This document shows positions 33,300-64,000 of a stretch of 64,000 nt of DNA, one piece after another. The notes below the pieces were generated by a model, which worked only from the letters and a program-made list of their open reading frames with translations, was not told the origin of the DNA and searched no databases. The DNA is from Pseudogymnoascus verrucosus (Eukaryota). The translations under genes and the position numbers were made by a program. The first letter of the stretch is position 1; the number at the start of each line of letters is the position of its first letter. The stretch is from NCBI GenBank assembly GCA_001662655.1, contig KV460229.1, one strand, 5' to 3'.

Positions 33300-34463
33300 T
33301 TACAAATCAGCTCTGGCTTCCTCTCCAGCCCATGCTCGCCTGAACAACTCTCTCACCTTCTCCTTTTCTACCGGTCTCGGATTCCAATACGACTTCTCGA
33401 GAGCAATCTCAGCAGCCCTGTCTAAATCCTTCTCCTTCAGTCCAAAATCGCTCAATGCTCTCTTGACCTGCAACTTCTCCAATAATAAATTCATCCCCTT
33501 CACCGCATCACCTTCACTACCAGGTAGCACCTCAGCCAGTTTCTTCATCGTTTCAGGAATATTCGGAGCATTGTAGGCCAGTGCGTGAGGTAAGATGATG
33601 GTGTGCGTTTCTGCATGCGGCATGTTGAAGGATCCCCCTAGCGTGTGGCAGAGCTTGTGGTGGAGAGACATGCCGACGGAGCCTAGACAGACTCCTGAGA
33701 GCCAGGCACCGTAGAGTGCTTGTTCGCGGGCTGGAATGTCGGACGGGGATTGGATGATTGTAGGGAGTGAGGAGGCAAGGGCTTTGATGCCTTCGAGTGC
33801 TAGAATTGACATGATCGGGTTTTGATTTTGAGCATAGAGCGCTTCGACTATAGGGGGTTGGGTTGGGTTAGATAATGTGGGGTATTTCAGGATGAGGCGG
33901 ATTTCGATAAAGAGAAAGAAGAATATTTAGGACATACCAGAGTGTGCGATTGCATTAACACCACTAGTCGCACTCATTTTTGCAGGCAATGTCATTGTAA
34001 GATCAACGTCGTAGATAACCGTGGTGGGCAAGATCTTGGGATCACTCCTCGTGGTCTTGCGCCCATCAACCGTCTCTCCTAGAATCGGCGTCATCTCGCT
34101 CCCCGCATATGTAGTCGGTATGCAGATATGCGGAAGGCCCGTCCTTATTGCGATGGCCTTCCCCAAACCAATTGTGGAGCCGCCGCCGATTGAGATGACT
34201 GAATCTGTGTTCGTGGATTGGGCGTAGGCGAGTGCTTTTTCGGTAATGGCGTAGGGAGTATGCATTGTTGCTTCCGTGAATATTCCTGCAATTTTTCCAT
34301 CGAGGAGGTCTTTTAATGTCGAAGTTTGCTCTGCTTGTTGGGGAGTTGAGAGAAGTAGAGGGGCAGATACGTTTAGGCGGGCTACTTCGGCCGGGAGTTT
34401 GGATAGCGTGCCTGAGCCAAAGAGGACTCGTGCCGGAGAAGCATTGTATTCAAAAGCGTCCAT
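33300..34463 (-). CDS. Maleylacetate reductase (Fe-ADH family), two exons
   Basis: PARVLFGSG, ATMHTP, IGGGSTIGLGKAI, PTTYAGSEMT, SGVNAIAH|VEALY, LHHKLCHTLGGSF, PHAETH and YWNPRP. Intron ~33848-33937. Confidence 0.9.
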
Positions 34464-35442
34464 ATTGCTGTAGGGAATAAATTATATAGATAAGTATGTT
34501 TTGTAGTAAAGTTCATGAGAATGGGTGCTGTGGTATTTATAAAAATAACTGAGAGAGTGGGAGTAGTTGGGGGGGGGGGAGCTTGCACTCGCGTGGTTGT
34601 CGATGTGGGGTTACAAAATGATGTGGGGGTAAGTTCGCGGTTTGAGCACACCCGTCGACTCGTCGACGAAGACTAGGAACACTCATCTTCGACGAACTCT
34701 AAAGCCCCAAAAAGCCACATAAAGCCTTGGGTTTAGGCATAAAGTTTCGTTTAGTTTGTGGGCTCAATGAGAAATCTAAAAGGAACGAAGGGTCTTTATT
34801 TACAGTAACGCGCGCATTTATCAACCGTCATTCTCAAGTCAAACTATCTTGGCCCCTATAACGAAACGAAAAGAAACACACTACCACCAGTTCATATTTA
34901 TGGTTTTAGTAAGATAGAGCAGCCGCATTATTGCGTAGGTTCTAGAGAAGGAATTGGTTTCAAACTCGATGTTGGAAGATGGGATCTTCCAGGCCGCGTT
35001 GTCGAAGAATCTCCAGTGTTACAGCTTCCGGAATACGGATGCTCCGAAGATGCCGACCGAGTCGGACGGAGAAGCTCCCTGCGACTTTATGACGACCATG
35101 ATAGGATGAACTGCGGGAGGTACCGGGTCTCGGTCAGTCTCGTGTCTCTTGCTTACAAGGTGCTAATACTAATATCTATGTGGCGCATCTTAGCGTCAAA
35201 TGCTACCCCATACCCAGAACCCCGGTACCCCGCAGTTAATTCTTTTGGAGAGATCTCCAACTTCATGTCGCCAACCTCGACGTCAACATCTGTCACCACT
35301 TCCAATCCTGCTTCAACCCTCACCTCTAGCCTAAATTTTGCAGTCTATATTCGATCGTTAGAATTAAGATTGAGGTTGTCATCGTCGCAACGAAAGCGCG
35401 CGACGTCCCCATCCCACGAATATTCTCAAAAAGGGAGCAGCA

Positions 35443-62368: not shown

Positions 62369-62879
62369 GTTAATTGAATATGCGATTTGTCTGAGCTACG
62401 TATCACTAGAAAGGGTGGGATGGATTTGGCTGTAAACCTGGATATCATTTGAAGGTTATAGTCATATTTCTGTGCTTACTTGCTTATTCATAGAATCCTT
62501 CGCCCTCTAACTTGACCTTTCCGCCAAGTGTGGTGTGGGCGTATGTGGGGTGCGGGGTGCGGGGTATATTTCAGAACAGATATCCACAAACCAGGGAGAT
62601 CCCTCCAGAACTCCCCTCATTATATTGGGAAAATGACGTGGAATTATGTGAGTCGCAATGTTTGACGCTTGCGCTGTGGCGGATGCTTGGTTTTCATGAG
62701 TAATAAAAGCCTGGCTCACAGGATAGAAGATGAAATTAACGAAGTGACCGAACTTACTTTCTCTCCGAAATTTTTCAAGGATATATATTTAACCAGTCCT
62801 TCCACTCTGCGTTACTTGTCATACATACACAAGCTTGCACTTCTCAGATTCTGCATATTGTCGCATCTTTCCAGCCGCT

Positions 62880-64000
62880 ATGTTCCTCTCGTATCCCATG
62901 CACCTCAGCGCGACAGCGCCTCAGCTTCTTATTGCGCTTATTGCTGTTCCATGCCTATTGTTCACTGCACTCTATTTTTACACTACCCCCAATGTTCTGA
63001 AGGTATTTCTCAAATTTCAATGACACTTTCCATCTGTCCCAACTGACCCAATCTAGGATCGACGAAGGAGACATCTCCCTCCGGGCCCGAGAGGGCTGCC
63101 ATTCATCGGGAATCTGTTGGACTTGGCAGATTCCGAACTTGTTCGAGGGAAAGCCCAGGCATGGGCACAGCAGTATGGCGAAATTTTTTACACCAAGATC
63201 GGTGGCAGTGACTACGTGTGGCTGTCATCCCCTAAAGTGGTAAAGGACTTGATGGACAAAAAGTCGGCGATCTACTCATCTCGCTCACCTTTACCTTTGG
63301 CCCAGGACGTCGCCAGCGCAGGCCGTCGCCAACTTTTTATGGAGTACGGGCCACGCTGGCGTTTAATTCGAAAATCCAGCCATGCGTTGCTCAACTCGAC
63401 AACTGCCATCAAATACCAGCCTGTTCAAGACTACGAGTCTAAGCAACTAATGGTCGAGCTGTTGGATACGCCTGGGCGATTCTACGAACACAACAGACGT
63501 TTCTCAGCCTCGGTCATAATGCTCATCACATATGGACATCGGCTACCTACATGGGATGATCCTCTTCTCAAGAAGATATACGCTGTTCTTGATAACTTGA
63601 CAGAGATGACAGCACCAGGTGCCCACGCAGTCGACAGTTTTCCTTCGCTAGCTTACCTTCCTCAATGGCTACTTGGAAACTGGCGATCTTTTGGGAAAAA
63701 AGTGTTCGATCATGACAGTAAAGTCTATCTCGAACTTTGGGAGAACCTAAAGAGAGAGGTGGATGCGGGAACGGCGAGGGATAGCTTCTGTAAAACATTT
63801 TATCTGAACAATCCAGAAAAGCAGGGGATTGACAATCTACTCGCTGCATACACTTGTGGTGGCCTTATTGAGGCTGGCGCAGAGACCACTGGCACTACAC
63901 TCAACAACTTTATGCTAGCCATGATGATGTTCCCTGAGGTGGTGAAAAAGGCCCAAGCAGAGATTGATGAAATTGTCGGCTCTGAAAGATTGCCAGTCTT
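62880..64000 (+). CDS. Cytochrome P450 monooxygenase (second), truncated by the window edge
   Basis: N-terminal TM, intron ~63004-63057, LPPGPRGLPFIGNL, KDLMDKKSAIYSSR, YGPRWRLIRK, EAGAETT and KAQAEIDEIVGSERLP. Confidence 0.92.

Follow-up and report, generated by a model that had tools for sequence, protein, structure and literature searches.

We analysed 64,000 nucleotides (nt) of Pseudogymnoascus verrucosus DNA (contig KV460229.1 of assembly GCA_001662655.1), a stretch we call the window, whose right half, from 33.3 to 64 kb, holds 17 contiguous genes: 15 for enzymes, one for a major facilitator superfamily (MFS) transporter and one for a transcription factor. We think it probable that this half is one co-regulated catabolic cluster of a Leotiomycete, combining a ring-fission block with a lactone module and directed at an aromatic compound of the lactone or ester type. 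The grouping of the 17 genes exceeds chance, because a promoter box is common to all of them. Part of the cluster appears to be an old unit that recurs in other fungi, to which the ring-fission genes would have been added.

The window is intron-bearing fungal DNA. For the right half, Pfam was searched (E ≤ 0.001) with the 141 stop-to-stop open reading frames (ORFs) of at least 70 amino acids that overlap 33-64 kb. For the left half, it was searched with 122 of the 125 ORFs of at least 85 amino acids, the remaining three falling within the right-half scan. Further family evidence came from NCBIfam, applied to 25 of the 141 ORFs, and from PDB searches. Splice models were produced by a small dynamic-programming gene finder, and those of g02, g03, g06, g09 and g15 were curated by hand. 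Together these sources bear out an initial annotation made from the sequence, which had listed 17 contiguous genes at the same positions, namely 15 enzymes, an MFS transporter and a transcription factor:

33300..34463, minus strand: g01, maleylacetate-reductase-type Fe-ADH; two exons (34463-33938, 33847-33300); Pfam Fe-ADH and ADH_Fe_C
35443..38473, plus strand: g02, transcription factor with two N-terminal C2H2 fingers and a Fungal_trans domain, modelled from frames and splice sites; 5' exons 35443-35614, 35670-35724 and 35799-37035 (plus strand), the 3' part of the model being less certain
38875..40643, minus strand: g03, type-B carboxylesterase with the GESAG serine motif; five exons, Pfam COesterase on three
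41020..41448, plus strand: g04, PcaC-like carboxymuconolactone decarboxylase (CMD); single exon; Pfam CMD
41746..42597, plus strand: g05, alpha/beta hydrolase of the enol-lactonase (PcaD) type; single exon; Pfam Abhydrolase_1
42967..44823, plus strand: g06, second type-B carboxylesterase, also GESAG; five exons after splice curation; Pfam COesterase
45083..46806, minus strand: g07, cytochrome P450; three exons, Pfam p450 on two
47293..48301, minus strand: g08, atypical Rossmann (Epimerase/NAD_binding_10-like) reductase; two exons; weak Pfam Epimerase match
48547..49647, minus strand: g09, second metallo-beta-lactamase (MBL)-fold protein, with a HAHWDH metal motif; four exons, from frames and junctions
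50453..51422, plus strand: g10, beta-hydroxyacid dehydrogenase resembling 3-hydroxyisobutyrate dehydrogenase (HIBADH); two exons; Pfam NAD_binding_2 and NAD_binding_11; TIGR01692
51835..53499, minus strand: g11, MFS transporter; single exon; Pfam MFS_1 and a weak TRI12 match
54255..55654, minus strand: g12, group-A flavin adenine dinucleotide (FAD) monooxygenase of the PnpA/HspB kind, about 404 amino acids; four exons; Pfam FAD_binding_3
56319..57355, minus strand: g13, HIBADH-like dehydrogenase; two exons, TIGR01692 at 201.7 bits on the large one
57867..58904, minus strand: g14, MBL-fold lactonase-like protein with an HVHYDH motif; single exon; Pfam Lactamase_B
59192..60916, plus strand: g15, dioxygenase of the homogentisate dioxygenase (HGD) family; five exons after splice curation (59192-59305, 59365-59387, 59447-59621, 59680-60282 and 60335-60916, plus strand); Pfam HgmA_N and HgmA_C
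61299..62368, minus strand: g16, short-chain dehydrogenase/reductase (SDR); four exons; Pfam adh_short
63057..64000, plus strand: g17, second cytochrome P450, truncated where the window stops; Pfam p450 match covering positions 1-311 of the 462-position profile

Identity within the duplicated families is low (g03/g06 31%, g07/g17 38%, g09/g14 28%, g10/g13 41%), as predicted for old paralogues and not for recent copies. Some members have few informative relatives. The P450 exon search in Protein Atlas returned generic P450 clusters only, g08 has weak PDB matches (best 3ew7, 31.5 bits), and the large carboxylesterase exon had no PDB match at E ≤ 1e-5.

What ties these genes together is the promoter box. 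K-mers were counted in the 450 nt upstream of the 17 starts and in 73 left-half tiles; ACCCCAC occurred in 15 of the 17 upstream regions and 7 of the 73 tiles, and ATGTGGGG in 11 of the 17 and none of the 73. We define the box as ACCCC[AG]C (G[CT]GGGGT on the other strand), with an extended form T-ACCCC-R-CA(T). Counting both strands, the whole window has 39 matches, 29 at or beyond position 33300 and 10 in the left 33.3 kb. The 29 cluster boxes are concentrated in promoters, with 26 in the 5,462 non-genic nt that lie no more than 400 nt upstream of starts and three in 22,788 genic nt. All 12 of the cluster's 5' intergenic regions contain the box, in one to four copies, and 16 of the 17 genes have at least one within 400 nt upstream; the boxes of g17 are 498-512 nt away. 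Against the 26 observed, 300 dinucleotide shuffles of the upstream set averaged 1.04 matches and never exceeded 4, and 41 permuted box cores gave a mean of 3.4 matches, the high scorers being shifted copies of the box itself. None of the eight left-half promoters carries it. The longer form TACCCCRCA has 10 matches in place of an expected 0.95, nine of them within 33.8-62.6 kb. This distribution sets the left border of the putative regulon at the very start coordinate, 33300, that the initial annotation had given. The mapped boxes, to which no strand is assigned, are:

34605..35233: boxes at 34605 and 35227, between g01 and g02
40749..40797: three boxes in the region separating the divergent genes g03 and g04
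41604..42817: one box ahead of g05 (41604) and two ahead of g06 (42804, 42811), with a further match at 42343 inside g05
47011..48403: boxes upstream of g07 (47011) and g08 (48397)
49902..50157: four boxes in the region separating the divergent genes g09 and g10
53701..55911: one box ahead of g11 (53701) and two ahead of g12 (55854, 55905)
57518..59007: two boxes ahead of g13 (57518, 57558) and four in the region separating the divergent genes g14 and g15 (58933-59001)
62545..62565: three boxes that overlap one another, in the g16-g17 intergenic region

One well-formed box, AATACCCCACATTA at 33877, lies inside the g01 intron and not in a promoter. At 48379, in the g08 promoter and about 18 nt from the box at 48397, three related organisms have a 15-nt insertion that the window strain lacks.

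Which protein might read the box? The regulator encoded inside the cluster, g02, has two C2H2 fingers, joined by the linker H-T-R-E-K-P-F and split by two introns, and a Fungal_trans domain; it is not a Zn2Cys6 protein. The recognition helices are RSEHCSR in finger 1 and RKDLVTR in finger 2, so that positions -1, 3 and 6 are occupied by R, H, R in the one and by R, L, R in the other. Under the zinc-finger recognition code, such a pair would read G(T/C)G-GGG. The predicted specificity of g02 equals the box, and from the finger residues and the code we infer that g02 reads it. TGTGGGGTA is a box-bearing sequence and a candidate site for the g02 finger region. Finger 1 also has the pattern R-x-E-H-x-x-R, which is that of the CreA/Mig1 finger. 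The site consensus of CreA is SYGGRG; the box fits it and extends beyond the six-base CreA core (T-ACCCC-R-CAT). CreA may thus bind the same places as g02.

The architecture of g02 has a precedent. HxnR, which governs the nicotinate cluster of Aspergillus nidulans, is a pathway regulator of the C2H2 plus PF04082 kind that its authors call unusual (PMC5746545, in the parts available to us). It too is encoded in its cluster and has two N-terminal C2H2 fingers with PF04082, a match to g02 at the level of architecture, whereas the enzyme set of that cluster is entirely unlike the one in the window. A search for terms in the available parts of PMC5746545 brought up no HxnR binding site.

The ring-fission block comprises g12, g15 and g01, possibly with a carboxylesterase. 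The closest structures to g12 are PnpA (6ain, 109 bits) and HspB (7da9, 102 bits); the next match scores 54.5 bits, and salicylate monooxygenase structures only about 39 bits. PnpA, the p-nitrophenol 4-monooxygenase, and HspB both hydroxylate ipso at a substituted para position and release a para-diol. g01 matches 3jzd (217 bits) and the maleylacetate reductases 3hl0 (180 bits) and 3w5s (175 bits). Because the g12 product is closest to PnpA and HspB and is accompanied by an HGD-family dioxygenase and a maleylacetate reductase, a para-diol ring-fission step in this cluster is plausible on sequence grounds. The initial annotation had proposed a catabolic route through a para-diol, and the locus does have a catabolic look; its further guess of a benzo-fused lactone or lactam as substrate is not supported. 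In the bacterial p-nitrophenol/hydroquinone pathway (PnpA-PnpF), the route ends with the maleylacetate reductase PnpF. The proposed route here would end in the same way, and g12 is most similar to PnpA and to the HspB of the nicotine pathway, but ring fission would fall to an HGD-family enzyme in place of the two-subunit hydroquinone dioxygenase PnpCD. We recognised no benzoquinone reductase or hydroxymuconic semialdehyde dehydrogenase in the cluster.

How close is g15 to known HGD enzymes? It carries both HGD domains (PF20510 and PF04209), the His-Glu-His iron ligands and the lid tyrosine, and its PDB matches are 9pz4, 1ey2 and 3zds. The roles of these active-site residues, iron ligands and lid tyrosine, are general knowledge for the family. 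They are also covered in part by the accessible sections of a review (PMC11634970). In an alignment to 1ey2 and 3zds, the HRN, SE and PHG motifs are conserved and the tyrosine of the lid motif Y-x-A-K is kept, as Y-G-G-R. g15 departs from positions at which human and Pseudomonas HGD agree, with Y-x-A-K changed to Y-G-G-R, S-L-H to S-F-E and H-G-P-D to H-G-V-A. These changes belong to a clade motif (...YG.YGGRSD...S[FY]EC...PHGVA) found in every match in which the motif could be located. Relatives sharing it come from Taphrinomycotina, Saccharomycotina, Pezizomycetes, Orbiliomycetes and the main Pezizomycotina classes; members include Saitoella, Lipomyces, Pezizomycetes and Orbilia. Pseudogymnoascus itself has at least three proteins of the clade, 82-87% identical to g15, and the g15 tree holds many lineage-specific duplicates, a pattern that fits repeated recruitment of HGD genes into catabolic loci. 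No A. nidulans or A. niger name appeared among the best 120 matches of two heavily overlapping g15-family searches, one of them with an A. venezuelensis protein as query, and no locus name of either species among the cluster members of 10 HGD-family proteins. Pc21g22500 had no mention in the literature searched.

The match to 9pz4 deserves separate notice. This recently solved 496-residue protein is labelled 'homogentisate 1,2-dioxygenase' and has a glycine in place of the lid tyrosine. Exon 4 of g15 scores 253 bits against it and 203 bits against human HGD. A search for a paper on 9pz4 brought up none, the literature matches being irrelevant. At 59253-59563, one low-depth contig of a related organism (organism G) lacks a run of 309 nt that falls within the 5' part of g15, with a flank of only 29 nt on one side; this may be an assembly artefact or a strain deletion.

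The enzyme set of the block has a counterpart in A. niger, as described in the parts of Lubbers et al. (2021, PMC8336404) available to us. There, the flavin hydroxylase VhyA converts vanillate to methoxyhydroquinone, and the HGD-family enzyme MhdA opens this ring to the monomethyl ester of maleylacetate. The ester is then reduced, probably by a maleylacetate-reductase homologue (candidate NRRL3_4956), and the carboxylesterase OmeA, whose gene adjoins mhdA, hydrolyses the reduced ester to 3-oxoadipate (PMC8336404). Further HGD-like methoxyhydroquinone dioxygenases, PcMHQD1 and PcMHQD2, are reported from the white-rot fungus Phanerochaete chrysosporium in the same portion of PMC11634970. The window repeats the order of enzyme families, from flavin hydroxylase through HGD-family dioxygenase and a maleylacetate-reductase-like enzyme (g01, 175-217 bits) to carboxylesterase. 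The two systems differ in several respects. g12 is PnpA/HspB-like, whereas VhyA is reported as a decarboxylating enzyme of the salicylate-hydroxylase type; g15 may lack orthology to MhdA, the likeness being at family level; and the esterases lie 15-19 kb from g15, which has MBL and SDR genes as neighbours. Moreover, a single 17-gene cluster here holds all the steps together with a regulator; in A. niger the locus numbers lie far apart except for mhdA-omeA, and eleven further genes of the window have no counterpart there.

In the available part of the fungal HGD homologue tree of PMC8336404, the HmgA proteins of ascomycetes group separately from those of humans, plants and bacteria, and the MhdA clade is narrower than the HmgA clade. 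The tree (supplement 1) labels its tips with Joint Genome Institute (JGI) numbers, and we compared the g15 clade with it by breadth. Given its wide taxonomic spread, the g15 clade may fit the HmgA clade better than the MhdA clade. With the tyrosine/homogentisate cluster (HppD, HmgA, FahA, MaiA) the window has in common a dioxygenase of the HGD family that conserves the iron ligands and the lid tyrosine, while domains of fumarylacetoacetase (FahA), GST-zeta (MaiA) and HppD had no match among the 141 + 122 window ORFs.

These comparisons bear on novelty. Since its set of enzymes follows the published A. niger logic, the ring-fission block cannot be called undescribed, as the initial annotation had called the whole pathway; that description holds for the lactone module and the regulon. 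Literature searches by gene combination returned the Lubbers paper for the HGD set and, judged by titles and abstracts, nothing related for the combination of CMD, HIBADH, MBL and C2H2 genes.

The lactone module consists of g04, g05, the MBL proteins g09 and g14, and the HIBADH-like g10 and g13. g04 is the best match of the PcaC model TIGR02425 and g05 of the PcaD model TIGR02427. In the PDB, g04 matches 4g9q and 2af7, the two being solved 4-carboxymuconolactone decarboxylases, and g05 matches 3om8, 7dq9 and the 3-oxoadipate enol-lactonase 2xua. g13 matches the 3-hydroxyisobutyrate dehydrogenases 2i9p and 2gf2 (145 bits). g09 has no Pfam match at the threshold used and was recognised by its HAHWDH motif, an AttM match of 27.5 bits and 28% identity to g14. 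g14 matches the AttM, pyridoxolactonase and AiiA models of NCBIfam, and its metal ligands (H143, H145, D147, H148, H245, D267 and H328) are invariant in a 16-sequence alignment. Its AlphaFold (AF2) model has a mean predicted confidence (pLDDT) of 85.3, and among the Foldseek matches listed the first 27 ranks are lactonases, with TM scores of 0.57-0.63 on the query; they include 4-pyridoxolactonase, AiiA, AhlX, GcL and AiiB. The model thus predicts a lactonase fold for g14, in keeping with the lactonase-like character first assigned to the MBL proteins, and the HxHxDH motif with its further His and Asp ligands is that of the AiiA/4-pyridoxolactonase group. Vitamin-B6 degradation (pyridoxolactonase with SDR and FAD monooxygenase) was considered and dropped, the NCBIfam scores being 40.7 and 50.4 bits against a cutoff of 325. 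Among named relatives of g14 the best is a Pseudogymnoascus protein with 96% identity, whose gene model merges the adjoining HIBADH and MBL genes into one.

g04 and g05 are adjacent, like a PcaC/PcaD pair, but their partners here are MBL lactonases and HIBADH-like dehydrogenases, and genes of the PcaHG and PcaB types had no match in the window. In A. niger, according to the accessible parts of PMC10406623, the PcaC orthologue is induced about 240-fold on protocatechuate, its deletion has no phenotype and its role is unassigned; a second CMD-like protein is essential there, its function likewise unassigned.

The predicted lactonase fold bears on the possibility that the cluster detoxifies a single plant or microbial defence compound. 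The Fusarium FDB clusters for benzoxazolinone combine an arylamine N-acetyltransferase and an amidase with an MBL lactamase. By this analogy, which the initial annotation had drawn, the MBL enzymes would open the lactam or lactone ring of a toxin and the other genes would dispose of the product, with no nutritive role; the pairs of MBL hydrolases and of carboxylesterases, together with P450s, a transporter of the MFS type and a transcription factor, would suit such a purpose. The analogy to FDB fails, because Pfam found no amidase or arylamine N-acetyltransferase domain in the window. In addition, the MBL fold matches lactonases and not lactamases, and mineralisation is suggested by what looks like a full set of enzymes leading to 3-oxoadipate (HGD, maleylacetate reductase, and the PcaC-like and PcaD-like proteins). 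We regard detoxification as very improbable, the least probable of the explanations considered.

Is the cluster conserved in other fungi? Public DNA runs of several organisms contain the part of the window from 54 to 64 kb. Three organisms (B, D and F) match the whole or the greater part of 44-64 kb colinearly, with identities of about 98-99%, and organism G has pieces of it; these runs come from close relatives and therefore give no independent support. For more distant comparison, metagenome contigs were scanned with an alignment of g14 relatives, which gave 80 loci, 61 of them non-redundant, and neighbourhoods were read by local tblastn and ORF clustering. Around the MBL relatives, counted on loci of at least 4 kb with duplicates included, MBL genes occur at 55 loci, CMD at 34, HIBADH at 24, a second CMD-like gene at 21, a transcription factor at 16 and a zinc alcohol dehydrogenase (Zn-ADH) at 12. 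The recurrent unit is an MBL gene flanked by a g04-like CMD (55-71% identity) and a g13-like HIBADH (50-70%), often with the second CMD-like gene, a C2H2 plus Fungal_trans transcription factor and the Zn-ADH. At locus L026, on a 405-kb contig, seven of the window's families recur together, with identities of 43-71%: g08 (58%, at the locus edge), g11 (48%), g05, g14, g13, g04 and g06. Conserved linkage, which the initial annotation had made a test of the cluster, is therefore found outside close relatives for seven of the 17 families, and the dioxygenase, monooxygenase, maleylacetate reductase and P450s are not among them. That L026 shares seven families and lacks the ring-fission genes suggests that part of the cluster is an old conserved unit and that the ring-fission genes are additions. 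The gene neighbours of NRRL3_08340 were not described in the literature searched. At four further loci (L022, L023, L028 and L006), a PfkB-family kinase is the recurrent third neighbour of the closest CMD/MBL divergent pairs; these kinases are 79-89% identical among the four and have no counterpart in the window.

The box and the type of regulator recur with the module. In the 61 non-redundant loci, the 46.4 kb of module 5' gaps contain 62 boxes, or 1.33 per kb, with at least one in 51 of 93 gaps, about sixfold denser than the 0.23 per kb of the rest, although this sets intergenic DNA against mostly coding DNA. Six different CMD/MBL divergent promoters have a copy between the two genes. In 11 distinct metagenome loci, the transcription factors adjoining the module have the finger-1 helix RLEHLQR. 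All 12 factors, g02 included, agree in the position and phase of a GT donor within H-x3-H, and the spliced linker H-[ST]-x-EKPF was recovered in three of the 12 with a strict pattern. A second kind of C2H2 plus Fungal_trans factor, with the helix RSDLLVR, adjoins MBL relatives at loci L034, L063, L076 and L078; with two types of finger helix beside them, MBL relatives appear to be linked to at least two lineages of transcription factor.

The absence of a core synthase was also part of the initial annotation and is upheld for the entire window. Among the 141 + 122 ORFs spanning the 64 kb, Pfam detected no ketosynthase, adenylation, condensation or terpene-synthase domain, and thus no core of the polyketide synthase (PKS), nonribosomal peptide synthetase (NRPS), terpene synthase or dimethylallyltryptophan synthase (DMATS) kind. 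Likewise, in the 21 kb of L026, none of 23 ORFs picked from 34 of at least 100 amino acids (overlapping and antisense ORFs omitted) matched a core domain. The 17 genes might nevertheless be the tailoring part of a secondary-metabolite cluster whose core lies beyond the right edge, with the MFS protein exporting the product and the other enzymes decorating or releasing a polyketide. The window does end inside the P450 g17, and two P450s, an FAD monooxygenase, an SDR, hydrolases and an efflux-type MFS protein with a weak TRI12 match would be at home in such a cluster, as would the UstYa-like ORF at 758-1150. MBL-type thioesterases, moreover, exist in fungal anthraquinone clusters. Set against this are the lack of core domains at both loci, the membership of the maleylacetate reductase, the PcaC-like and PcaD-like proteins and the HGD in ring-fission or lower-pathway families, the predicted lactonase fold of g14, and boxes of the CreA type, which are typical of catabolic genes. 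We consider a biosynthetic role improbable.

Several observations weigh against a single co-regulated catabolic cluster. The evidence for co-regulation of the 17 genes is the shared box, and since the box also fits CreA, it may mark glucose repression by this general repressor rather than control by g02. The Fungal_trans match of g02 sits at the Pfam cutoff (22.7 bits, just below 23), and its overall identity to the module-linked factors is 22-38%, so we take them to be related by family and do not claim orthology. Both g04 (141 bits, cutoff 155.7) and g05 (95 bits, cutoff 255.85) fall under the NCBI equivalog cutoffs of their models, and the gene models are hand-built predictions. g15 keeps the lid tyrosine, and its broad ascomycete clade may be that of true homogentisate dioxygenases; g01 would then be left with no obvious substrate, and FahA and MaiA would be missing. 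Finally, L026 has two FAD_binding_4 oxidases and an SDR in place of the HGD, FAD monooxygenase, maleylacetate reductase and P450; none of these four kinds of gene was found within 10 kb of any MBL relative, and by these comparisons the 17-gene set is not conserved as a whole outside close relatives.

Some of the same facts would suit a catabolic island, in which two or more independent routes, the para-diol route and the older lactone module among them, act on different substrates and have only CreA control in common. The distant L026 links only seven of the 17 families; many loci carry the CMD-HIBADH-MBL core by itself, with no HGD, FAD monooxygenase or maleylacetate reductase; the box fits the CreA consensus; and the duplicated families, as old paralogues of 28-41% identity, suggest parallel branches. 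But the box is longer than the six-base CreA core, is present in 12 of 12 cluster 5' regions and none of the eight left-half promoters, and accompanies the module in other fungi, and a regulator whose fingers are predicted to match it is encoded inside the cluster. We therefore hold the island to be unlikely, though of the alternatives to one co-regulated cluster it has the best claim.

How would one co-regulated cluster work? We propose, with the chemistry of both blocks taken from enzyme families, that g02 binds the box in all cluster promoters and that CreA probably competes at the same sites, so that the genes would be induced by substrate and repressed by glucose. The MFS transporter g11 would import the compound, and esterases, P450s and the two Rossmann reductases would funnel it to a para-substituted phenol. 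In the ring-fission block, g12 would hydroxylate ipso to give a para-diol, either a substituted hydroquinone or homogentisate; g15 would open the ring; g01 would saturate the enedioate; and, if the product is an ester, the carboxylesterase g03 or g06 would free 3-oxoadipate, following the logic of the A. niger VhyA-MhdA-reductase-OmeA route. The lactone module would handle lactone or butenolide intermediates or side products. Here the PcaC-like g04 and PcaD-like g05 would act on carboxy-butenolides, the MBL enzymes g09 and g14 would open lactones to hydroxy acids, and the HIBADH-like g10 and g13 would oxidise these acids. The core of CMD, HIBADH and MBL, often with the same type of transcription factor and the same box, would be the older ascomycete unit to which other genes were added. 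Our best guess at the substrate is a para-substituted phenol that carries or yields an ester or lactone.

A broader reading is also possible, and we offer it tentatively. The window may represent an undescribed ascomycete regulon in which an activator of the C2H2 plus Fungal_trans type, with CreA-like fingers, competes with CreA at G[CT]GGGG and switches the CMD-HIBADH-MBL core; in Pseudogymnoascus-like fungi, with an ipso-hydroxylase and an HGD-family dioxygenase, this core would have expanded into a 17-gene supercluster that mineralises aromatic lactones or esters. If so, the orphan, protocatechuate-induced PcaC orthologue of Aspergillus would gain a role, and the uncharacterised CMD-HIBADH-MBL module with its box may explain why this dispensable, bacterial-type PcaC is retained. 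A pathway-specific C2H2 factor that shares the CreA site would also be a simple mechanism for setting induction by substrate against repression by glucose.

Why does such a locus matter? Fungal aromatic catabolism has been mapped mostly gene by gene in Aspergillus, and few large catabolic clusters are known together with their regulator and cis-element. Here a regulator lies together with 15 enzymes, and the box that it likely binds is present in every promoter, so altering this one transcription factor could turn the entire route on or off and thereby show what compound it acts on. In practical terms, the enzymes are candidates for valorisation of lignin-derived aromatics and for detoxification of mycotoxins or lactones.

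The left 33 kb of the window has a different content: a UstYa-like ORF, an MFS protein, an amino-acid permease, a Fung_rhodopsin protein, a Vac7 protein, a NACHT-ankyrin protein, an ATP-binding cassette (ABC) transporter and an Abhydrolase_3 protein. Directly left of the cluster lie the full-size ABC transporter (26508-31117, minus strand) and the Abhydrolase_3 gene, which is lipase-like with a GESAG motif (31608-33069, plus strand); their promoters have no box, so they are seemingly outside the regulon. The UstYa match (mycotoxin biosynthesis protein) is weak, 33 bits, and its ORF at 758-1150 (minus strand), close to where the window begins, may be part of a different cluster further left; one TACCCCACA and one ACCCCGC lie near it, at 504-526. 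At 20128-23694 (plus strand), between housekeeping genes and the ABC transporter, is a gene for a protein resembling fungal NOD-like receptors (NLRs), with NACHT/NPHP3_N, winged-helix and ankyrin-repeat parts. The Vac7 domain is in a single 969-amino-acid ORF (13310-16216, minus strand) that has a GC content of 0.59, compared with about 0.46-0.52 around it, and strong GC and AT skew.

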